Source: Naegleria gruberi (lineage: Eukaryota). From it: a stretch of 12,976 nt of DNA. The translations under genes were made by a program, and so were the position numbers. The DNA lies in NCBI GenBank assembly GCA_000004985.1, contig GG738998.1; one strand, written 5' to 3'. Position 1 is the stretch's first letter. Every line of letters starts with the position of its first letter. Below, piece by piece: positions 892 through 12,976 of this stretch. Under the pieces are notes generated by a model. It saw only the letters and a list, made by a program, of their open reading frames with translations, ran no database searches and was not told the DNA's origin.

Positions 892-1746
892 ATGCATCAA
901 CACGGAAAGCTCAGACGGGTGGTTATTTTGTTCACCTTCACTCTCATCATGATGTTGGTCATGGGACAAGAAACAGCCAAGACCAAACTCTTCAAGAATA
1001 TGATTTCCCGAACTCAAAATAATCAAAATTATAAAGGAAGTACTAAAATCGGAAGTGTTCAAGATGGAGTTTGGACCAATGTTTTCCAATTATTTGGATT
1101 CCGTTCAGCAAATAATCAAACAGATACTGATAATAATCCAAAATTTATTTCATTATTCTATGATGGAATTCATCAGAGAATGAGAATGGATGGAGCTGGT
1201 TTGGGAGGCCCTGCAGCTCAACTCTCTTCCACATCAGTTTTGTTTGAAATTTTGAGATATTATATGAATGTTGTGAGTGTTGATTTTTGTATCTTTGAAC
1301 ATTTGCATCCTAATTCTACTGCTTATGGAGCTAGAGTTTTCCCATTCAGTGGAAAGGGTACTGTGGCTGAAGGAGGATTCACTGTTGCCAAATATTCTGG
1401 AGCTAAATTGATTCAAAGTAATGCTATTCTTGAACCATCCAATTTGATTAATGGAATGCAAAAGAGAGTTTGTAATGTCTATAATTTGGATGGAAAGTCT
1501 GATCTTGCTATTGGTCTTGGATTTTACTTGTTCAATTATCAAGGACCTACCTATGTTGACATGACTTATTATGAAGATGCCAAGACAGGACAACCAGTAA
1601 GATTTGAAATGAAAGATTTGGGAGGTTTTAAGGGAATTACCTCTTGGGATGTATTGAATTTCCAATTCTTTAGTGATAAGGATGATTCTGCTAATGTATT
1701 TTCCAAAGATTTATTCTACTGGAATGCCAAACCAACTTGTCATTAA
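892..1746 (+). CDS. Secreted/membrane-anchored protein of unknown function (284 aa) with an N-terminal hydrophobic signal/anchor
   Basis: 284-codon uninterrupted ORF with an A-run start context (aaaaaaaATG). Residues 9-25 (VVILFTFTLIMMLVMG) are hydrophobic, consistent with a signal peptide. The stop overlaps an AATAAA motif (1744-1749). No recognisable family motif. Confidence 0.6.
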   Translation: MHQHGKLRRVVILFTFTLIMMLVMGQETAKTKLFKNMISRTQNNQNYKGSTKIGSVQDGVWTNVFQLFGFRSANNQTDTDNNPKFISLFYDGIHQRMRMDGAGLGGPAAQLSSTSVLFEILRYYMNVVSVDFCIFEHLHPNSTAYGARVFPFSGKGTVAEGGFTVAKYSGAKLIQSNAILEPSNLINGMQKRVCNVYNLDGKSDLAIGLGFYLFNYQGPTYVDMTYYEDAKTGQPVRFEMKDLGGFKGITSWDVLNFQFFSDKDDSANVFSKDLFYWNAKPTCH

Positions 1747-1983
1747 TAAAATATAACCTGAATTATTTCAGATATCTTACTCTTTTATTTAAGGAATACT
1801 TTCTGCTATTACACATAATTGAAATGTTGCTCTACTAGAAGAGCTTTAGGATATTCAAGTGTAAAATTTTACTTGTATGGGGGTTTGTTTTTCATCAATT
1901 ATCCAACTTGATTATCCGAAAGTTTGAATTTTCTTTAAATAGCTGAAGAATAGTAGAGATCCTCAACAATAACAACAAAAAGA

Positions 1984-2181
1984 ATGCAAGCCTTGGTTAT
2001 TGAAGATTACTGTATCCAACCAAATTTTAAACTAGTTTCGGATTTTGAAAAACCATCCAAGTTGAAAGAAAATCAAGTTTTGGTCAAGTTGAAAGCAGCT
2101 TCGGTCAACCCAGTCGATTACAAAATGAGAAACGGAGCCACAAGGAAAGCAACTCCAGTCAAATTTCCAACGACGCTATTG
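1984..2181 (+). CDS. Exon 1 of MDR-superfamily (zinc-type ADH / quinone oxidoreductase-like) gene; GroES-like N-terminal segment
   Basis: MQALVIEDY...QVLVKLKAASVNPVDYKMRNG matches the N-terminal consensus of MDR quinone-oxidoreductase-like enzymes (eVLVkv.AaslNpvDyk.r.G). A GTAAAA donor at 2182 ends the exon in phase 0. Confidence 0.55.
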
Positions 2182-2258
2182 GTAAAATATTAGATCAAGA
2201 GGGTGAACATTCGTTTAACAATCAACCTTTGACTCCTCCATTCGAAACTTCCAAAAAG

Positions 2259-2930
2259 AAAGAGTTGAAAATTCTCATATTAGGTGCTTCTGGAGGAACT
2301 GGTTTGAGTGCTTGTTTGATAGCTAAACAATTCCTTTCCCTATATTTCCAAACAAAGGTTTATGCTGTTTGTTCTGAGAGAAATATTGACATTGTTACAA
2401 AAATGGGAGCAGATGTTGTCATTGACTATACAAAAACATCATCCAAACCTAGAATAGATGGTGAATCTGAAAATCTGAAGAGTATTTGTCAAACCATTAA
2501 GGAAGACCATGGAGATTCTTATGTGGATATTGTATTGGATTGTGTTGGTGGAACTGAAATGTATTATCGTGACGTTTGCAATAATTTTGAGTGTAAGAAA
2601 GCAAGAGATGGTGTTGCATTCACAACCATTTCACCAAATGTTCCATTCGAACCAAATATGGGACTTTCTTCTTTGATGAAAATTGGATATTTTGTAGTTT
2701 CTAATAAGATTAAGTCATTATCGAGTGCTTATCCATCCTTCCACTTTGTTTTCATGGATAAGAACGTAAAAGATATGAATTTACTGATGAATCATATTGT
2801 AATTTCGAATCAAGTTTACAATCAACTTCCACTGATGGAATTTGAATTTTCTGCTCAAGGATTAAACGATGCACATAAACAAATGGAATCTCAAAGAACA
2901 GTTGGTAAAATCGTTATCAAAATTCAATAA
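2259..2930 (+). CDS. Exon 2 of MDR-superfamily oxidoreductase; Rossmann-fold NAD(P)-binding domain through C-terminus
   Basis: KILILGASGGTGLSACLIAK...MGADVVIDY is the classic GxxGxxG Rossmann motif of MDR enzymes. The C-terminal TVGKIVIKI is also typical. Acceptor AAAAAG at 2257-2258 keeps phase 0, giving a 77-nt intron (2182-2258). Stop is TAA at 2928-2930, with AATAAA immediately downstream. Confidence 0.6.
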   Translation, partial: KELKILILGASGGTGLSACLIAKQFLSLYFQTKVYAVCSERNIDIVTKMGADVVIDYTKTSSKPRIDGESENLKSICQTIKEDHGDSYVDIVLDCVGGTEMYYRDVCNNFECKKARDGVAFTTISPNVPFEPNMGLSSLMKIGYFVVSNKIKSLSSAYPSFHFVFMDKNVKDMNLLMNHIVISNQVYNQLPLMEFEFSAQGLNDAHKQMESQRTVGKIVIKIQ

Positions 2931-3135
2931 ATAACATCTTTGTTCAAGTTGACTTTGTGTGTAATCTTCACAGTAACGGAATTGGATTATATTCCAAACA
3001 ACTATTTCCAAATCAAGAAGGAATTGTTAAATTCGAATAATTTCATTGGCTTGAAAGTTAAAAATTGGTAATTCCAATCATTCGTTTGTAAGTAAGCGAA
3101 GGCAAGTTAATCTTTCAGTAGTTTCCCATTATTGT
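2926..3135 (-). pseudogene. Degenerate fragment homologous to the 3' (kinase C-lobe) part of the ankyrin-kinase gene at about 4722-4910
   Basis: Roughly 80% nucleotide similarity with indels to 4722-4910. Shared strings include 'ttggattatattccaaacaactatttcc', 'cttcattggcttga', 'aattccaat.attcgtttgt', 'gcaagttaatctttca' and 'ttcaataaat'. The minus-strand reading gives ERLTCLRLLTNE then a stop, versus the intact ERLTCFLSTNELLELF in the real gene. Confidence 0.5.
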
Positions 3136-3197
3136 GAACACCAATGAACAAATTCACCTTTAATTTTAATGATGCTGAATAATTCTTACAAAAAAAA

Positions 3198-4171
3198 ATG
3201 GAAGCAACAAGTGCACAATTAAATAATCCTTTTAGTGTTTTTGTTTCATCAAATAATGAAGTTTTTATTGCTGACTATAACAATCAAAGCATTAGAAAAG
3301 TATTACAAAATGGAAATATTGTAACAATAGCTGGAAATGGAGATAAAGGATTTAGTGGTGATAATTGTCTAGCAACAAGTGCACAATTAAATAATCCTAT
3401 TGGTGTTTTTGTTTCATCAATGAAGTTTATATTTCTGACTATTGTAATCATGTAATTAGAAAGATTTTACAAAATGGAACTATTGTAACAATTGCTGGAA
3501 ATGGAAAACCTGGATTCGGTGGTGATAATGGCCTAGCAACAAATGCACAGTTGAATTACCCTAGAAATGTATATGTTTCATCAAATAATGAAGTTTATAT
3601 TGCTGACTTTTGTAATCAAAGAATTAGAAAAGTATTACAAAATGGAAATATTATAACAATAGCTGGAAATGGAACTAAAGGATTTAGTGGTGATAATGGT
3701 CCTGCAACAAATGCACAATTAAATGGTCCTGCAGGCGTTTTTGTTTCAAATAATGAAGTCTATATTGCTGACTATAGTAATCATGTAATTAGAAAGATTT
3801 CACAAAATGGAACTATTGTAACTATAGCTGGAAATGGAAAACCTGGATTCAGTGGTGATAATGGACTTGCAACAAATGCACAATTATATAATCCTTCAGG
3901 CACTTTTGTTTCATCAAATAATGAAGTTTATATTTCTGATTGTTTTAATCATGTAATTAGAAAGATTTCACAAAATGGAACTATTGTAACAATTGCTGGA
4001 AATGGGAAAGGAGGATTCAGTGGTGATAATGGTCCTGCAACAAATGCACAATTATATAGTCCTTTAGGTGTTTTTGTTTCCTCAGATAATGAAGTTTATA
4101 TATCTGACTGTTTTAATCATAGAATTAGAAAAGTATTACATAATGGAAATATTGTAACAATAGCTGGAAAT
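3198..4171 (+). CDS. NHL-repeat (six-bladed beta-propeller type) protein; at least 6 tandem 55-56 aa repeats; 1-nt frameshift near 3419-3421; 3' end lost in N-gap
   Basis: Repeated unit ATNAQLxxPxGVFVSSNNEVYIADxxNHxIRKIxQNGTIVTIAGNGxxGFSGDNG recurs every 165-168 bp. The Y/F-V-(A/S)-D ... I-R-K-I ... G-x-I-x-T-I-A-G pattern is the NHL-repeat signature. Start context is aaaaaaaaATG. A single-A deletion in 'tcatcaaatgaagtt' shifts frame 0 to frame 2 (ORFs 3198-3455 and 3551 onward). The ORF runs into the 450-N gap. Confidence 0.6.
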
Positions 4172-4621
4172 NNNNNNNNNNNNNNNNNNNNNNNNNNNNN
4201 NNNNNNNNNNNNNNNNNNNNNNNNNNNNNNNNNNNNNNNNNNNNNNNNNNNNNNNNNNNNNNNNNNNNNNNNNNNNNNNNNNNNNNNNNNNNNNNNNNNN
4301 NNNNNNNNNNNNNNNNNNNNNNNNNNNNNNNNNNNNNNNNNNNNNNNNNNNNNNNNNNNNNNNNNNNNNNNNNNNNNNNNNNNNNNNNNNNNNNNNNNNN
4401 NNNNNNNNNNNNNNNNNNNNNNNNNNNNNNNNNNNNNNNNNNNNNNNNNNNNNNNNNNNNNNNNNNNNNNNNNNNNNNNNNNNNNNNNNNNNNNNNNNNN
4501 NNNNNNNNNNNNNNNNNNNNNNNNNNNNNNNNNNNNNNNNNNNNNNNNNNNNNNNNNNNNNNNNNNNNNNNNNNNNNNNNNNNNNNNNNNNNNNNNNNNN
4601 NNNNNNNNNNNNNNNNNNNNN
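4172..4621. other. Assembly gap (450 N)
   Basis: Run of n characters. ORF-track proteins containing X-runs across it are artefacts. Confidence 0.99.
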
Positions 4622-5028
4622 AAAATTGATCTTTTTTCATTAGTTTGAATTGTTTGTAATGTTGGAACTAATTTCCTTTTTTTGGAAGGTTGTTCTTTTT
4701 GTTCATTTTGTAAAATGTTTGCTGTTAATTTCAATAAATGTTTTTGTAATTCCGCAAATGATGGTCTTGATTTTGGATTATATTCCAAACAACTATTTCC
4801 TATTCTAATAACTTCATTGGCTTGATTGAGTGTTAAACAAGGAAATAATTCCAATAATTCGTTTGTTGAGAGAAAGCAAGTTAATCTTTCATTATTTTCA
4901 ATGTGTTTTTGAGAAAATAATTCATACATTGTAACTCCAAAACTGTAAACATCCAATGCCGTGAGAAGATATTCTTTTTGGAAATCTTTCGGTTTGTGTT
5001 GCATTCGTTTTTCATAAATTTCAGGAGC
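4622..5028 (-). CDS. Ankyrin-repeat Ser/Thr protein kinase, exon 3 (kinase subdomains VIII-XI and C-terminal tail; 3' end in gap)
   Basis: After splicing the protein reads ...TIGGTFQYM|APEIYEKRMQHKP...DVYSFGVTMYELFS..., the canonical GT..YMAPE and D.WS.G subdomains. Acceptor TTCTAAAG ends at 5029-5030 on the minus strand. The ORF continues into N-gap 4172-4621. Confidence 0.7.
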
Positions 5029-5076
5029 CTTTAGAAAGTAAATTCTTAGATTGAATTAAATGAGACAAAACTTACC

Positions 5077-6050
5077 ATGTATTGAAAGGTTCCTCCAATG
5101 GTTGCTGAATAGGTTTCCACTTTATCAACAGAAACTGAAACATCAAAATCAGCAATTTTCACATCTTTTACCAATTTCAATCCATCAATTTCAATCATAT
5201 TAATTAAAATATTAGCAGGTTTAATATCATAATGAATAATCTTCCTTTCATGAAAATATTTCAAAGTTTCACAACATTTCATGCAAATAAATAAATATTG
5301 AATTAAAATTCCAAAATTATTCACTCCAAAATTAGTCAATTTTGTTGAACACTTATCCAATGAACTATTCATCAATTCCAAAAATAAATGCGTAGTTCCA
5401 GATTCGTCAATATAATGATACAATAATTTAACTGTTCCTTCACAAGTGTTGATTTTCTTCAAGATTTCCAATTCATTTTCTCCAGTATTATTCGAAACCT
5501 TCTCTAAAACTTCCAATCCATTCAATTTAACAATTGCCAGTGCATTCTTTTCAGTATTCGAAATGGGTTTTCTACAACTTCTATCAATCATTGGATTTTG
5601 TAATTCTTGAATTTGAATCATTGTTGGAATTACAATTGGACAACTGTTTGCTACTCGTTCTGCAAATGTTTTCACAACGTATTCTTCCCAACATTCAGGG
5701 ATTGCTTGTTTAAATGCAAGTATTTTGCTTACTGACATGGGATTTGGAATTAACTGATTGCTGACACTTTCTAATAATGATTTGAAAGCAGAAGAATATT
5801 CGAAATATTGACAAAATACATCTTGTGAATTTGACGGATGATTCCCAATGTTGAAATGAATTCCACCAGAACCATCAATTAGAAATCCATCGAAACAATT
5901 AGAATGATTGTAAAGTAATTTCGAATATAAATATTTGATCCAATATTTCCTTCGTAGTTCAGTGGAAATGTGGTTATTCTTCATTAACAGTGTTGCAGTT
6001 TCGTATTGTTCGTTTCTAATAGCTACTTCTAATAGAGTTTCTCCTTCTCG
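5077..6050 (-). CDS. Ankyrin-repeat Ser/Thr protein kinase, exon 2 (ankyrin repeat end and kinase N-lobe through the activation segment)
   Basis: Contains AIVKL (beta3 Lys), ENELEILKKI (alphaC Glu), HYDIKPANILI (catalytic loop; HYD instead of HRD), KIADFD (DFG replaced by DFD) and GTFQYM. The GTAAGT donor is reverse-complement at 5071-5076, giving a 48-nt intron (5029-5076). The exon begins after a CCAG acceptor (6051-6054 reverse-complement). Confidence 0.75.
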
Positions 6051-6147
6051 CTGGTCATTAGTTTAGAATTCTGCTTTCGAATAAAACTTACATTTCTCTT
6101 TAATACAAAACGATGATTAATTATTATGATTAACAATAATTACATAC

Positions 6148-6453
6148 AACATTAAAATCAATATTCGGAACCTGTGTCAATAATTCTATAATTTCGTGTG
6201 CGCTTTCTTTGACAGCTGTCATTAATATTGTTTCTCCCAGTACCGAATTATTATTGATGATCAAATGAAGTTTCAGACTTTTCAAAGTTTCCAAATCCTG
6301 ATCACAAATGGCAGCTCTAGCAGTATAAATAGAGTGAAATATTTCATCCGAAACATTATTGGAAAGTGTAGGTGAGTTAGCAGTTGGTGATGAGCTTATA
6401 TTGAAAAGTGAAGGAAGTGCAGAGGTTGGTGATGAAGTCCAATTATTGTACAT
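6148..6453 (-). CDS. Ankyrin-repeat Ser/Thr protein kinase, exon 1 (N-terminal S/T/N-rich region and ankyrin repeats)
   Basis: Start context aaaaaaaaATG (reverse-complement of 6453-6461). ...GETILMTAVKESAHEIIELLTQVPNIDFNV joins REGETLLEVAIRNEQYETATLLMKNNH in exon 2 (ankyrin consensus G.T.L..A....n.e....LL). A GTATGT donor at 6147-6142 and the CCAG acceptor give a 97-nt phase-0 intron (6051-6147). The unspliced ORF hits a stop at 6130. Confidence 0.65.
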
Positions 6454-7117: not shown

Positions 7118-7540
7118 CCCGCTCATTTTTGTTGACGCATGTTTTGACGATTTTATAGTCATGAATGACGCCTTTGTTTATGCTTGTTAAGGTGTCATTG
7201 GGACGGTGTTGTGGACGTCAAAATGACGTTTTTTTTCGTCATTTTGACGGTGTCAATTTGAGAGTCATTAAGACGTCAAAAAAAGCGTCCTCAATGACGT
7301 CTCAAAAAGTGTCTCCAATGACGTTGCAGAATGATTATTAATTTTTGATAAATTGAAATTTTATTGAACTATTCATAATTCTTACAAGTTGGAAATCTTT
7401 CATCTTGAACCATTTCACACTGAGTGAAACTCAATGCTGTGAAAGATTCACACCGTGTGAATTAATATTGTAAAAGATTTCACACCATCAAAGATGACAA
7501 GGAAATTGACAAGAGTTTCTTTAAAAACGGAAATAAAATT
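7118..7540 (+). repeat. Copy A of transposon left arm (begins with the 12-bp terminus CCCGCTCATTTT; truncated by N-gap)
   Basis: 7118-7499 is base-for-base identical to 8079-8460 (offset 961) through 'gagtttctt'. The last roughly 20 bp differ by small indels before the gap at 7541. Flanks upstream of the two copies are unrelated, so this is not a tandem duplication of locus sequence. Confidence 0.85.
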
Positions 7541-7590
7541 NNNNNNNNNNNNNNNNNNNNNNNNNNNNNNNNNNNNNNNNNNNNNNNNNN
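7541..7590. other. Assembly gap (50 N, conventional unknown-size gap)
   Basis: Run of n characters immediately after repeat copy A. Likely a repeat-induced contig break. Confidence 0.99.
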
Positions 7591-7937
7591 TTTAATAATT
7601 TACTGTATGGATTATTTTCCAAATTTTTCGAATGTTTTGGATTATTTCTAATAAGATACATGGCAATCCAATTAATCGGATCGATCTTTGAGTAGATAGT
7701 ACTCTTTAATTTTTCATATTCTTGTTCCTCTTCCGATTTCGGATCAACTGTTGAATACTCCTTTAATAAGGATTGAAAAGCAGGAATCAGCACTCCCAAA
7801 ATATTTTCCTCCAAATAAAACGACAGCTCATCGCCACCCTCCCGAGCCAATCTAATGGTTGTTTCATCCTCTCCGAGCGATTCCTCAACATGAAAATTGT
7901 ATTCGTGATGAAGAGGCGAAGCAAAGTGCTTTTTCAT
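7591..7937 (-). CDS. Dpy-30/RIIa-like dimerisation-docking domain protein (3' end in gap)
   Basis: ATG at 7937 in an aaaaaaATG context. SFYLEENILGVLIPAFQSLLKE plus DPINWIAMYLIRNNP resemble the two helices of the Dpy-30 motif (YL...V.P.L..GL..L ... DPI.FLA.YLL.N), with about 25 aa inserted between them. The ORF is open into the gap at 7590. Confidence 0.5.
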
Positions 7938-8078
7938 TTTTTTAAATTATTTTTATCGTAGTTATTTTTGGCGCCATTTTAGTCAATCTGAATGGTAATT
8001 AGTTTAAGATCATAAAATATTAGAATTCAAAGAAGTAAGCGAGCGAGTGATAAATATTTTCATTTTGTTTGCCCACTA

Positions 8079-8501
8079 CCCGCTCATTTTTGTTGACGCA
8101 TGTTTTGACGATTTTATAGTCATGAATGACGCCTTTGTTTATGCTTGTTAAGGTGTCATTGGGACGGTGTTGTGGACGTCAAAATGACGTTTTTTTTCGT
8201 CATTTTGACGGTGTCAATTTGAGAGTCATTAAGACGTCAAAAAAAGCGTCCTCAATGACGTCTCAAAAAGTGTCTCCAATGACGTTGCAGAATGATTATT
8301 AATTTTTGATAAATTGAAATTTTATTGAACTATTCATAATTCTTACAAGTTGGAAATCTTTCATCTTGAACCATTTCACACTGAGTGAAACTCAATGCTG
8401 TGAAAGATTCACACCGTGTGAATTAATATTGTAAAAGATTTCACACCATCAAAGATGACAAGGAAATTGACAAGAGTTTCTTATAAAAACGTGAAATAAA
8501 A
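8079..8501 (+). repeat. Copy B of transposon left arm (terminus plus TGACG subterminal array plus TTTCACAC motif cluster)
   Basis: Identical to 7118-7499. Contains the palindromic core AAAATGACG-T8-CGTCATTTT (8185-8210) and six GTGAAA/TTTCAC(AC) motifs in both orientations at 8375-8450. Confidence 0.85.
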
Positions 8502-8665
8502 ATTTGAATTGATATGTCTTGTAAATGAATTGAAATGATGTAATATAATTGATAACTGATACGACTTACTAGTATGTTGAGGTATTTTTTTTGAAAAATA
8601 TTTTAAACTGGTTGCAAAAATAGAAAGTGTTTATTTTAGAGATGAAGCCAAATATGGAAAGACAT

Positions 8666-10840
8666 TTAATATAATGTAAAGGCCATTTTGTGAATTGGTT
8701 TGAAGTGAAAAGAGCCATTAATTTGCTGGCATATTGCTGGTATGAAATCTTGTTTGATAGTGTCTTGTGAGACGGTGATTGTTGTGCCATTAACAGCATG
8801 TCGAATCTCAATTTGTGAATAATTTGGAGAAAATGAATTGACTTGATAAATTTCTTTAGAGGGAGTGTGTAACAAGTAATCTCTTTTGCTATTGATTATA
8901 TAATTACCACAGACACATTCTAGTTTACGATTGGGAGGTTTCAAGTTCAATAATTGTACCAAATTTACCATATCAAAGAATAGAATTGAATATCTTAAAG
9001 AATTGGCACATTTGAAGGGTTTTGAGAGAATGTTATTCATTGCCTCAAAAATAAATGCGTTATTGCACCACAATGGACCATATAGACGGCAGTTCATTAC
9101 CATTTCAGCTGCTATGTGAAAATTTGGAGAGCAAAAATTAGCATCCTTCTTTTGAAAAAAGTACAGAACTGAGTTTAGCTGTTTCTGCAATAATGGAAGA
9201 TCTTCTAATTGAAATGAGTCCATTAGCTTATCAATAATTCTCACATATTGAATAATGTGTTGAACTATTTCTTGAATTTCACTATAGCTCGGAATTTCCT
9301 CAAATAATTCGAGATAATAATGACACAAAATGTAAACTTCAATGGATTTCAGGTGATTGATATTTTTTGCAATGGATCTTGGGTGCTTGTGAAAAAAGGA
9401 GGGAAACTTCTGTTTTAAATAAATGACATCAAATTCTTTCCAATATCGTTCATCAATTAAATTGAGAAATTTCACCAAAATACCTTCATAATTGTAATGC
9501 ATGTTATCATATGAACAGAGACATGTTGGATTAGGATTGAATGGTTGTAATAGGATTGGAGAAACACTATCCATTCCGGGTGGTAGATTTGAGTTTGGAA
9601 AATTGTTAATGAGAGAAATCTCATTGTGATATTCTCTGTATTTGAATTTTTCAAAAACCTCAATGAGTTCTGATTTTCCATTCAATACTACTAATCTTGT
9701 TCGAAACTCCAATGGATAAACTTTGTGAGAACCAGATGTATCTTCACCCTTAGTGTTACACAAGTGACAAAAATAAAATCCTTGGCGTTTAAAGAATAAA
9801 ATCTCTGATCTTGCAGGAAGGTCAGCAATTACTCGTTCAATTATCATTTCCAAATTAAGGTTTTTTTGATTTGAATTTAGACAATTCAGATCATTCATTA
9901 TTACTTTGAGTCCAATTTCAATATCTATCTTATCAGGTTTCCTTGGTAAAATGGCCCATAGAAAATTATTGGTAGATTTCTTTCGATCAGAAGGACTCAT
10001 TTCATTAAACTGTACAATGAAATTATAGAAATTATTCAAGCTCTTTTTAAATGGTGAAACTCCATCACCATTGAGAGTACCAGTGAGTCTTTTTGTTGAA
10101 ATGGTTTCATCAATCCAAGGTTGGTGAATTTTTCTAAATATTTCACCTCCTTGACGATCAGAAATTGTTGAGCTATCATTATGACCTTGGTAATTGAGTG
10201 TTTCATTAATAAAGTTTGGTTCAAAAGCTATTCTTTCTTGGAAAGCATATTCTAAAGGGCGCCAAAATAAATAATCATCTTTTTGCCAAATCTTTTCACA
10301 AGAACAATGAGTGTGTTGATTATCATGTTGAAAATCTTTACATTCTCTGCAATAGTGTATCTTTTTGGTCTTGCAATTCAAGTTATAATGTCCATAAAAT
10401 CCATTCAATGTTAGCATCTGCGAGAAATCTTCTTGGGGTGCCTCTTTAACCAAATTAGCACATTTTCCAATTAACTGGAGCATACTTTCAAGATTACTTT
10501 CTGATAATTGAGCTGAGGTTGTAAATTTCAAAATCTCGTTCATTATACGCTTTATAGGAAGAGAGAGATTATTCCAATGGTGAAGATTAAAATCAACTTG
10601 AGTAGAAGACCATTCAGATTCGCTTGTTAGTGTGTCTTCTTCTCTAATATCTTGAATTGGATCTATGTCATCTGTTGTATAACTTGACTCATCATCCTCA
10701 TCACTAATTTCTAATCTTTCTTCAATGTCATCACTCATTTTGTCATTACTGTTTGAAAAGTTGGTGGAATCTTGGTTATATCGAATATTGGCTAAGTATA
10801 TTGAGTTCTTGTTGGGCATTTCTTTTTGTTTAAGAAACAT
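8666..10840 (-). CDS. Transposase, Transposase_21 (Tnp2/En-Spm TnpD/KDZ) family, 724 aa
   Basis: GTLNGDGVSPF...FNEMSPSDRKK...FLWAILPRKPDKIDIEIGLKVIMNDLNCL aligns by eye to the Transposase_21 core (lSlStDGfnPF ... YNLPP..R.K...fl..LIPGPk.P.d.IDVYL.PLieEL..LW). The N-terminal Cys/His cluster IHYCRECKDFQHDNQHTHCSCEKIW resembles the transposase-associated zinc domain. The C-terminal LYGPLWCNNAFIFEAMNNIL resembles the GPV..RWMYPFERYM motif (DUF4218) of CACTA transposases. Single uninterrupted ORF. The reverse-complement region around 8629-8634 ('tttatt') supplies an AATAAA near the 3' end. Confidence 0.8.
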   Translation of the reverse strand: MFLKQKEMPNKNSIYLANIRYNQDSTNFSNSNDKMSDDIEERLEISDEDDESSYTTDDIDPIQDIREEDTLTSESEWSSTQVDFNLHHWNNLSLPIKRIMNEILKFTTSAQLSESNLESMLQLIGKCANLVKEAPQEDFSQMLTLNGFYGHYNLNCKTKKIHYCRECKDFQHDNQHTHCSCEKIWQKDDYLFWRPLEYAFQERIAFEPNFINETLNYQGHNDSSTISDRQGGEIFRKIHQPWIDETISTKRLTGTLNGDGVSPFKKSLNNFYNFIVQFNEMSPSDRKKSTNNFLWAILPRKPDKIDIEIGLKVIMNDLNCLNSNQKNLNLEMIIERVIADLPARSEILFFKRQGFYFCHLCNTKGEDTSGSHKVYPLEFRTRLVVLNGKSELIEVFEKFKYREYHNEISLINNFPNSNLPPGMDSVSPILLQPFNPNPTCLCSYDNMHYNYEGILVKFLNLIDERYWKEFDVIYLKQKFPSFFHKHPRSIAKNINHLKSIEVYILCHYYLELFEEIPSYSEIQEIVQHIIQYVRIIDKLMDSFQLEDLPLLQKQLNSVLYFFQKKDANFCSPNFHIAAEMVMNCRLYGPLWCNNAFIFEAMNNILSKPFKCANSLRYSILFFDMVNLVQLLNLKPPNRKLECVCGNYIINSKRDYLLHTPSKEIYQVNSFSPNYSQIEIRHAVNGTTITVSQDTIKQDFIPAICQQINGSFHFKPIHKMAFTLY

Positions 10841-10872
10841 GATGGATCTTGATCAAGGTAAACTTTAAAAAA

Positions 10873-12303
10873 ATGGCTCCAAAGAAAACCAAGAAAGCTA
10901 AAGAGCGAGCTATTTCTATCAAATGGAAAGTTCAAAAAAGTAATACCAAAACTTCTTCTAGTACTGATGAAAATTCATCCATTCTCACAAATTTGAAAGG
11001 AAGTGCCTATAGTGCCTATCAAACCTATTTCGCAAAGGAAGAGGCAGAAAAGTCTTCTCTTGTTAAAGAATTTGTTCAAATAATTAATTATTGGTGTATT
11101 TCAAGAGAGAGAGATAGAAAGTTAGTTAATTTTCAAAGTGAATCCTTAGCTAATTTGGTCCAATTTTTGAAAACTGATACATTTTACCAAGAATTTAAAA
11201 TAGATATCAAAGATTTCACTCTGAATCTGTTGGCAACAAAGGATCTTGCAACAAAGAATCATAGATTAGAAGTTGATTCAGTCCAAGAACCAAAATTAAA
11301 TGATTTCGTAAACATATTAGAAATGGATGATACAGATGTCAATTACTATATCATTCCAGCAATTGGTAAAGTAGTGAACGAAGATCCATTCCAAGTTTCA
11401 ATCGAACACCACAATCACATCCACTATGAGAAAAAGTATTCCAAAAAAACTCCAATCTCAGTATCGAAGGACATGACGAGCGTAATAGAAGCCTATGAGG
11501 AGACAGAGCCAAACTTTTCAACCATGCTACCTAGTAATAGAATTTCTGTTAACATTACCCCATCTAAAAGAAAGTCAAAAGCAAAGAAACCGTCTTGTAA
11601 TGAAATTTCAGATAATAACTCAGAACCAACCAATAAGATGTCAACTAGAAAAAACAAATCTAAAACAGCTGCTCCAAAGAGGAAGAATCAATCTGATGAA
11701 GATGAATCAAGTACTGATACAGATAATGATTCTGAACCAAGCAAGAAAAAACAATTTAAACCATCTTCCAGTAAACAACTAGTGAAGACAGTGAAGAAGA
11801 CCATGTCAGTTCATGATTCAGATAGTGATGAATCCACCACTGAAGATTCAGAAAATGGTACTAGTGACTCCACAGAATCTGTCTATTTTCAAGTTCGTCA
11901 CGTTAATGGAAAACGGGAATATGTGATTGTTCCAGAGCATGTCGATTACATCTTTGATTTGATAGATAAGGACAAAGCTTTTCCAGAGTTCATCAATGCC
12001 ATTATCCAATGTGAAAAGGTATTAACTGACCTCACAAAAAGGTTTGCTCATCTATTTTCAGGGCTTGCATTCAACACTACCGTAAATGGTATAACTTATT
12101 CAATTCCTCCAGACATTATCAAAATGCTTATTGGTAATGTGACTCAAAAACAGTGCTTGGAATTGTTAGCACATCATCACTTCAAGAAACCTATAGGAGA
12201 ACTCACAACTGATCAAAGAACAGTATGTAGAAAGTTCTTTGAAGCAAGGGGATGGGATAAAGAAAGTGTTCGGAAGGCAATCAATAGTTTGATCAAAGAA
12301 TAA
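10873..12303 (+). CDS. Transposon ORF2: 476-aa lysine/serine/acidic-rich protein with a structured C-terminal domain of about 150 aa; function unknown
   Basis: The ORF track starts at a TTG (10849). The first ATG is 10873, in a ctttaaaaaaATG context matching other genes here, and is only 32 bp from the transposase ATG (10840) on the other strand. The basic N-terminus (MAPKKTKKAKER) and poly-acidic/Ser tracts (SDEDESSTDTDNDSE, SVHDSDSDESTTEDSENGTSDSTES) suggest a nuclear, possibly DNA/chromatin-binding protein. No known motif in the C-terminal VYFQVRHVNGKREYVIVPEHVDYIFDLI... region. Confidence 0.6.
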   Translation: MAPKKTKKAKERAISIKWKVQKSNTKTSSSTDENSSILTNLKGSAYSAYQTYFAKEEAEKSSLVKEFVQIINYWCISRERDRKLVNFQSESLANLVQFLKTDTFYQEFKIDIKDFTLNLLATKDLATKNHRLEVDSVQEPKLNDFVNILEMDDTDVNYYIIPAIGKVVNEDPFQVSIEHHNHIHYEKKYSKKTPISVSKDMTSVIEAYEETEPNFSTMLPSNRISVNITPSKRKSKAKKPSCNEISDNNSEPTNKMSTRKNKSKTAAPKRKNQSDEDESSTDTDNDSEPSKKKQFKPSSSKQLVKTVKKTMSVHDSDSDESTTEDSENGTSDSTESVYFQVRHVNGKREYVIVPEHVDYIFDLIDKDKAFPEFINAIIQCEKVLTDLTKRFAHLFSGLAFNTTVNGITYSIPPDIIKMLIGNVTQKQCLELLAHHHFKKPIGELTTDQRTVCRKFFEARGWDKESVRKAINSLIKE

Positions 12304-12520
12304 TTTCTAGACATGATGTTAAGCTTGATGAACAAGTCAAGCTTGTGAAATTTGTATTTTTTTTTTAAAATTTTCAAAAATATTCACAAGTCTGAAATAC
12401 GTCACCTCCTCCTTCACTGATTTTCATCATCAAAACAACACAAAACAAACAACAACAAATAAACAACACATTACAACATCAAGTAGAACACAACAGAATA
12501 TCGATAATTAACTTTGGAGT

Positions 12521-12600
12521 AACTTTATGCAAAATCGTCAGCGATGACGTCAAAAAAAGCGTCAATCCACCATCAGGAATGACGAAATAAAATGAGCGGG
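12521..12600 (-). repeat. Transposon right arm (inverted terminus AAAATGAGCGGG plus TGACG/CGTCA subterminal repeats)
   Basis: Reverse-complement of 12589-12600 is CCCGCTCATTTT. Upstream motifs are aatCGTCAgc, gaTGACGTCaaaaaaaGCGTCaat and gaaTGACGaaat. The subterminal sequence is related to, but diverged from, the left arm, as is typical for CACTA-like elements whose two arms differ. Confidence 0.7.
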
Positions 12601-12693
12601 CTTTAGCGTTTTAAAAAAAAAACCATCACAACCAAACTGCAGCAAAATCTGTTGTACATATTTCGGGTTACCCAAAAGCTGTAATTGATAAAA

Positions 12694-12976
12694 GATGAAT
12701 CCACATCAACAAACACCACAACAAAATACTGAACAAAGTGAATCAGTAAATTACTATTACAATTCGAACAGTGATACAAATACCACAAGTAATTCCATTG
12801 CTAGTAAGACAAATCTCTTTATGTATGGTGGAGGTACATTGCTATTACTCCTTTCATTGGCATTGTTTGGAATTGGTGCACTTCTCTATGGAGTTGTAAA
12901 TTCAATTTCTGTTTCGTATGTCCATCAAGGATGTTGTAATGTTACTGTTTCTAGTGGTGCTCTAGTTATGATGATG
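12694..12976 (+). CDS. 5' part of a gene for a small membrane protein (N-terminal Q/N/T-rich region then a transmembrane helix), running off the right edge
   Basis: ATG at 12694 (aaaagATGaat). The frame is open for 94 codons to the window end: MNPHQQTPQQNTEQSESVNYYYNSNSDTNTTSNSIASKTNLFMYGGGTLLLLSLALFGIGALLYGVV... The hydrophobic stretch GTLLLLSLALFGIGALLYGVV is helix-like. The gene lies 94 bp outside the transposon's right terminus. Confidence 0.4.

Follow-up and report, generated by a model that had tools for sequence, protein, structure and literature searches.

The 12,976-bp stretch of Naegleria gruberi DNA analyzed here (the window), which is one entire scaffold interrupted by two N gaps (4172-4621 and 7541-7590), raises the question of what kind of mobile element occupies positions 8079-12600. 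The original prediction had placed there a transposon with a Transposase_21-type transposase and termini lacking CACTA, and had assigned it to a possibly undescribed lineage within a combined superfamily of CACTA elements and the Kyakuja/Dileera/Zisupton (KDZ) group. Our analyses support 8079-12600 as very likely being an intact and probably autonomous cut-and-paste transposon of the CACTA-Mirage-Chapaev (CMC)/EnSpm type, in a CCC-ended variant that duplicates 2 bp of its target.

Confirming the predicted coding content, the 724-amino-acid (aa) open reading frame (ORF) at 8666-10840 on the minus strand contained NGDGVSPF, LPRKPDKIDIEIGL, a Cys cluster (C164-x2-C167...C179-x-C181), and GPLWCNNAFIFE, and its product was 100% identical to an NCBI entry named “predicted protein [Naegleria gruberi].” The true start is likely M8 at 10819, as in the orthologue of L007, a Logan contig from another sample. 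We searched 1.84 billion representative sequences with a profile of seven sequences (the window protein, four Naegleria-clade relatives, and two distant relatives) and recovered 7,313 proteins at an expect value (E) of <= 1e-3 and 2,882 at E <= 1e-10. The nearest non-Naegleria matches include one from the spider Oedothorax gibbosus. Among 59 sampled distant matches, 55 hit Transposase_21 (best, 3.3e-16) and the overlapping DUF1258, and 6 matched DUF4218. An intact protein of a Naegleria lovaniensis family (family 2 below) also carries a precomputed weak match to PF02992.

Alignment of 60 sequences revealed D259, D340, E599, C358, C361, D445, H448, and H575 to be invariant in all 60. We assign D259, D340, and E599 as the predicted catalytic triad and C358-x2-C361 with H575 to the C(2)C / H(3-4)H signature, which has been described together with 2- to 5-bp target duplications for the CMCT group (Kojima 2025, PMC12730594). 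An AlphaFold model built on this 60-sequence alignment (predicted local distance difference test score [pLDDT], 74; predicted template modeling score, 0.78) matched RAG1 in Foldseek at E 8.5e-7, and a RAG1-like core is confidently predicted from this model. RAG1 was not found when PDB sequences were searched with a profile, the sole result being a weak zinc-ribbon-type similarity to eL43 (E 0.05), which involves the zinc-ribbon-like N-terminal region formed by the Cys cluster. Taken together, the profile matches, the alignment, and the structural model indicate that the protein is a RAG1-like DDE transposase of the CMC assemblage and not of the KDZ group.

The C-terminal tail of the transposase (residues ~665-713; 8702-8848, minus strand) was modeled as a small beta barrel of five strands, for which Foldseek gave weak SH3/KOW-like matches (E > 1), and was conserved only in the Naegleria clade. 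We also observed a SET methyltransferase domain N-terminal to the Transposase_21-type core in 4 of the 60 sampled sequences (P0006, P0010, P0011, and P0013), which are distant relatives of ~1,000 aa.

Positions 8079-8090 (CCCGCTCATTTT) and 12589-12600 (AAAATGAGCGGG), the proposed termini, form a perfect 12-bp inverted pair, as had been stated. Such a pair alone carries no significance, with 51 perfect 12-bp inverted pairs observed in the window against 18.8 +/- 5.9 in shuffled sequences, and we therefore validated the termini through the boundaries of copies and relatives. On the left, identity between the full copy (copy 2) and a second left end in the window (copy 1) starts at the same base (7118 = 8079), and the flanks outside these two ends are unrelated (GTCAACCT for copy 1 and GCCCACTA for the full copy). 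On the right, the match to L007, which is 82% identical to window positions 9818-12600, stops exactly at 12600 (...TTGAGCGGG followed by aactgtc). Similarity within two families of N. lovaniensis starts at CCCGCT or CCCGCA and stops at AGCGGG in every copy, and a metagenome element from an environmental Naegleria-like organism ends CCCGCTCCT...AGGAGCGGG, with three assemblies displaying three different right flanks directly after. Another relative, L008, likely has a CCCGCA end. The terminal hexamer CCCGC[T/A] is thus kept across at least five Naegleria-clade families even though their proteins are only ~40% identical. Termini of the form CACTA...TAGTG (or CAC...GTG or CA...TG) were absent from every lineage examined, all of which have CCCGCT...AGCGGG, and CCC agrees with CAC at bases 1 and 3 only. 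These findings establish CCCGCT...AGCGGG as the true ends of the element and bear out the predicted CCCGCT start.

Transposase homologues with 39 to 42% identity were found in N. lovaniensis, in an environmental assembly, and in another NCBI assembly. N. lovaniensis contained seven complete insertions in two families, with 99.5 to 100% identity within each family. Family 1 consists of L004, L005, L006, and L012 plus the 5'-truncated L013, which lie at unrelated loci and are 99.5 to 99.9% identical over ~5.9 kb; family 2 consists of L009, L014, and L015. The 2-bp flanks of the seven complete insertions were AA/AA, TG/TG, GA/GA, GA/CG, GA/GA, TT/TT, and AT/AT, so that a 2-bp target duplication is present in six of seven (the exception being L012), with a chance probability of ~1e-6. 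The short duplication expected of the CMCT group (2 to 5 bp) was therefore found in the relatives at 2 bp. A 5-bp duplication, suggested by AACAA in L004, was rejected because the other copies share just 2 bp. A metagenome scan with the clade alignment recovered no contig beyond one already included here. Recent mobility is supported in this lineage, far better in N. lovaniensis than in N. gruberi.

Other sequences were noted in or near these relatives. N. gruberi has a second family, 43% identical, represented by P0009 (EFC49422) and P0020 (EFC49423), adjacent gene models on a 712-kb scaffold that reflect either degradation of the copy or erroneous splitting of one gene. The right arm of L014 contains a 422-bp nested insertion (12509-12930) absent from L015 and L009, and its TGGCGGCGCA... 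inverted ends and apparent TA duplication suggest a small nonautonomous element of another superfamily. About 1 kb upstream of the family-2 element in L009, an 894-aa ORF (937-3621) with a Phage_integrase (tyrosine recombinase) domain may belong to an element of the DIRS or Crypton type; the published repeats of N. lovaniensis include DIRS (PMC6125883).

A divergent ORF of 411 to 506 aa occupies the same position upstream of the transposase gene in all related elements. In the window this second ORF (ORF2) is 66 to 72% identical to its L007 orthologue, with a ratio of nonsynonymous to synonymous substitution rates (dN/dS) of 0.38, and the corresponding ratio for the transposase N terminus was 0.20. 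From these ratios, both ORFs are judged to be real genes under purifying selection. A word-indexed search with ORF2 found one homologue only.

The subterminal arms are rich in TGACG, as had been reported. The window contains 33 TGACG sites compared to 8.5 +/- 2.9 expected, a number reached in none of 200 shuffles, and 26 of the 33 lie inside three arms (10 in 8094-8284, 10 in 7133-7323, and 6 in 12400-12584). The sites occur in both orientations, an 18-bp unit (GACGTCAAAAAAAGCGTC) is common to both arms of the element, and in both N. lovaniensis families the arm next to ORF2 is likewise enriched in TGACG. In three families, the first TGACG of one end lies at element position 16, but this end adjoins the transposase gene in N. 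gruberi and ORF2 in N. lovaniensis, and the site was therefore not used as support. Palindromes (TGACGTCA or GACGTC) at 12545-12552, 8175-8182, and 8233-8240 match the core of a cyclic AMP response element (CRE)/basic leucine zipper (bZIP) site, and host bZIP factors could bind the arms.

These features suggest how the element would move. Both genes would be transcribed divergently from a shared bidirectional promoter in the short central spacer, and the transposase would recognize and cut the CCCGCT termini and insert the element with a 2-bp stagger. The TGACG sites would be bound by protein to pair both ends, with either the transposase N-terminal zinc ribbon or ORF2 as the reader. By analogy, ORF2 would act like TnpA of maize En/Spm in binding TGACG sites.

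Several observations weigh against an intact, mobile CMC/EnSpm element. We observed neither excision nor transposition. In N. gruberi, this family was seen as a single full copy and a single partial copy, both within one scaffold, and the full copy as assembled is flanked by TA/CT without a target duplication. The window protein matched Pfam Transposase_21 (PF02992) directly only below threshold (E 0.0053; 16.4 bits versus a cutoff of 28.6); the relationship to Transposase_21 originally proposed was supported through the clade profile. At position 579, where 59 of 60 sequences have His, the window protein has Glu (E579), and this second His of H(3-4)H is replaced by Asp or Glu in the Naegleria relatives. 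Similarity of ORF2 between lineages is marginal (BLASTP E 0.007 to 0.15; hhalign E 0.013), and ORF2 has no Pfam match and gave an unusable structure model (pLDDT 37.6), for which reasons the TnpA-like role stays an analogy.

The arrangement of the two left ends allows more than one interpretation. The sequence at 7118-7521 is identical to 8079-8482, so that the 100% identity claimed for a second left arm holds for 404 bp. Beyond this identity, the final ~20 bp ahead of the N gap (7541-7590) contain three single-base insertions or deletions, a pattern to be expected at a low-quality contig end. The outer left flank of copy 1 ends in CT, the same as the right flank at 12601, and the left flank of the full copy is TA; these CT/CT and TA/CT combinations are explained about equally well by two adjacent insertions and by a chimeric contig caused by repeats. 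We tentatively consider an assembly chimera, rather than two nearby insertions, to be a serious possibility for this layout. In such a chimera, the contig to the right of the gap would join the left flank of another locus (7591-8078) to the element, and the sequence from 12601 onward would belong with the flank up to 7117. The indels of copy 1 at the scaffold gap resemble those of read ends, six of seven relatives do carry the 2-bp duplication that the full copy lacks, and the metagenome relatives display repeat-induced flank swapping of this kind. However, a 2-bp match arises by chance in ~1 in 13 to 16 cases, and a duplication is likewise missing from L012 and from half of the SmTRC1 copies (PMC1636069). 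Two different left flanks imply at least two insertion sites, chimera or not.

The second arm thus documents a minimum of two left-end junctions, and it carries limited weight as evidence that the element was recently active in N. gruberi, given its position at a contig end beside a gap and the mismatched TA/CT flanks. Recent activity as originally argued from this arm was therefore weakened, and recent mobility in the lineage is instead supported by the seven near-identical N. lovaniensis insertions, six with duplications.

An ORF at 7521-7937 (minus strand) whose product weakly matches the Dpy-30 motif (E 7.9e-4, short of the cutoff) runs into the N gap and starts 141 bp from the left end of the full copy (spacer 7938-8078). 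Either the full copy adjoins the upstream side of a host gene start, or the Dpy-30-like fragment is cargo between two left ends. A broader interpretation, which we regard as improbable, combines a deep, separate CACTA/Transib/RAG1 branch in Discoba that has its own ORF2 with a composite unit spanning 7118...12600. The members of such a branch could be more than cousins of the animal TRC elements, with a lineage-specific ORF2 reading the CRE-like TGACG(TCA) subterminal sites, and the composite, with two left ends, one right end, and CT flanks, could have moved ~0.5 kb of host DNA including the Dpy-30-like gene start.

Membership in the KDZ group instead of CACTA/CMC appears very improbable. The Naegleria element and KDZ elements share large eukaryotic DDE transposases, Cys-rich N-terminal regions, and non-CACTA ends, the ends of KDZ elements are poorly catalogued (PMC12730594), and the direct Transposase_21 match is weak. 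In contrast, none of the seven clade sequences (at E <= 1) or the 59 distant relatives (at E <= 0.001) matched a KDZ Pfam model, and 55 of the 59 match Transposase_21. The 2-bp duplication also differs from those of Kyakuja (7 bp) and of Zisupton and Dileera (8 bp) (Kojima 2025, PMC12730594), and the predicted fold is RAG1-like with the CMC/Transib C(2)C...H signature. On these grounds, the combined CACTA/KDZ assignment of the original prediction was not supported.

A domesticated or otherwise immobile gene pair beside a chance inverted repeat would agree with the one full copy visible in the window, with the frequency of 12-bp inverted pairs, and with purifying selection on both ORFs. This explanation also has very little probability, since the second left end begins at exactly the same base within a different flank, the relatives occur as several copies, 99.5 to 100% identical, that lie at unrelated loci and carry target duplications, and the terminal hexamer is conserved among families with only ~40% protein identity.

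Least credible of all is a canonical CACTA element with its real ends further out: CACTA does directly abut the left CCCGCT on its outside (8074-8078), and 3 bp beyond the right terminus is TAGCG, which differs from TAGTG by one base, but copy 1 has GTCAACCT before the same terminus and L007 and all eight N. lovaniensis copies, in which we looked for the outward extension to CACTA that would contradict the predicted ends, diverge exactly at CCCGC/GCGGG into unrelated flanks without CACTA, so that the CACTA at 8074-8078 appears to be a coincidence.

The layout of the CMC/EnSpm element and of the second left end is given in Table 1, in which the full copy appears to be autonomous.

Table 1. Features of the transposon and the second left end in the N. 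gruberi window
Feature	Position	Strand	Remarks
Complete element, 4,522 bp	8079..12600	.	Left edge from copy 1 versus copy 2; right edge from 82%-identical L007; both ORFs intact
Left terminal inverted repeat CCCGCTCATTTT	8079..8090	+	CCCGC[T/A] kept in N. lovaniensis families 1 and 2, metagenome element, and L008
Right terminal inverted repeat AAAATGAGCGGG	12589..12600	+	L007 ends ...TTGAGCGGG at the same point and diverges beyond
Left subterminal array, 10 TGACG/CGTCA sites, with TGACGTC cores and 18-bp unit GACGTCAAAAAAAGCGTC	8091..8290	.	
Right subterminal array, 6 TGACG/CGTCA sites	12400..12588	.	18-bp unit GACGTCAAAAAAAGCGTC at 12546-12563; TGACGTCA palindrome at 12545-12552
DDE transposase ORF, 724 aa	8666..10840	-	
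ORF2, 476 aa from first ATG, divergent accessory gene, no known domain	10873..12303	+	
Short spacer between divergent ORFs	10841..10872	.	~53 bp if the transposase begins at M8
Second left end (partial copy 1)	7118..7540	+	Equals 8079-8482 over 404 bp; other outer flank; cut by gap 7541-7590

Neighboring host sequence was also observed in the window. At least six tandem ~168-bp (56-aa) units at 3087-4171 encode NHL/teneurin-type beta-propeller repeats (Pfam NHL, 7.6e-22); because the array runs into the 450-N gap (4172-4621), the repeat number is probably under-assembled. Three collinear ORFs at 4117-6453 (minus strand) correspond to two halves of a protein kinase domain and to ankyrin repeats and probably derive from a single host kinase gene that is interrupted by short introns or by the gap.

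Our findings extend the CCC-ended, 2-bp-duplicating CACTA variant from animals to a heterolobosean amoeba on a very distant eukaryotic branch, implying that this end type is either old or horizontally transferred. They do not open a new class of element. The original suggestion of an undescribed lineage therefore narrows to a new host group for the CCC-ended 2-bp variant, which was already known from animals. For annotation of Naegleria repeats, the elements provide clean, apparently active reference copies with intact genes, defined ends, and N. lovaniensis copies that are 99.5 to 100% identical. Due to its confidently predicted RAG1-like core, the transposase may also serve as a compact, intron-free protist model for how the end sequence (CCC versus CAC) covaries with a RAG1-type active site. 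A literature search for Naegleria with Zisupton, EnSpm, or CACTA found no description of this family beyond one line in a RepeatModeler table, which lists 38 CMC-EnSpm pieces totaling 69.8 kb in N. lovaniensis (PMC6125883), roughly the amount that a dozen copies of ~6 kb each from these families would yield.

Relative to plant En/Spm, with its TnpD and TnpA proteins, the Naegleria element shares the Transposase_21 superfamily, a two-protein organization, short inverted termini, subterminal motif arrays in two orientations, and a small target duplication. It differs in having CCCGCT rather than CACTA ends, a duplication of 2 bp rather than 3 bp, and intronless, divergent genes rather than one spliced unit, and ORF2 lacks similarity to any Pfam family and hence to any TnpA-type family. 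Transib and RAG1 have CAC termini and a 5-bp target duplication, in contrast to the CCC termini and 2-bp duplication found here, and the Naegleria elements have no RAG2-like partner. Sequence identity to RAG1 and RAG1-like proteins is ~10%, with no match to PDB sequences at the level of hidden Markov models. The strong predicted fold similarity to RAG1 reflects the wider relationship within the CMCT assemblage (PMC12730594).

The closest resemblance in ends and target duplication is to the animal TRC elements, against which the original premise of CACTA ends and 3-bp duplications in plant and animal En/Spm elements is too narrow (PMC1636069, PMC4298943). DeMarco et al. (2006) described TRC elements (SmTRC1 of Schistosoma mansoni and others in Tribolium and Aedes) as having Transposase_21, CCC-initiated inverted repeats, and 2-bp duplications (PMC1636069), and Hydra Spongebob was placed in the TRC group on the same criteria (PMC4298943); Ciona CACTA elements combine 2-bp duplications with CAC ends. 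Shared with TRC elements are a Transposase_21-type transposase, inverted termini starting with CCC, the 2-bp duplication (seen here in the relatives), and a size of ~4.5 to 9 kb. Unlike TRC elements, those of Naegleria reside in a heterolobosean protist rather than in animals, share the longer terminal hexamer CCCGC[T/A], and encode a separate divergent ORF2 rather than alternatively spliced products of one unit; the element in the window further differs in its TGACG-rich arms and in inverted repeats of 12 bp rather than the 54 bp of SmTRC1. The Naegleria elements thus share both TRC hallmarks, a likeness in end type and target duplication rather than a phylogenetic placement relative to other CMC branches.

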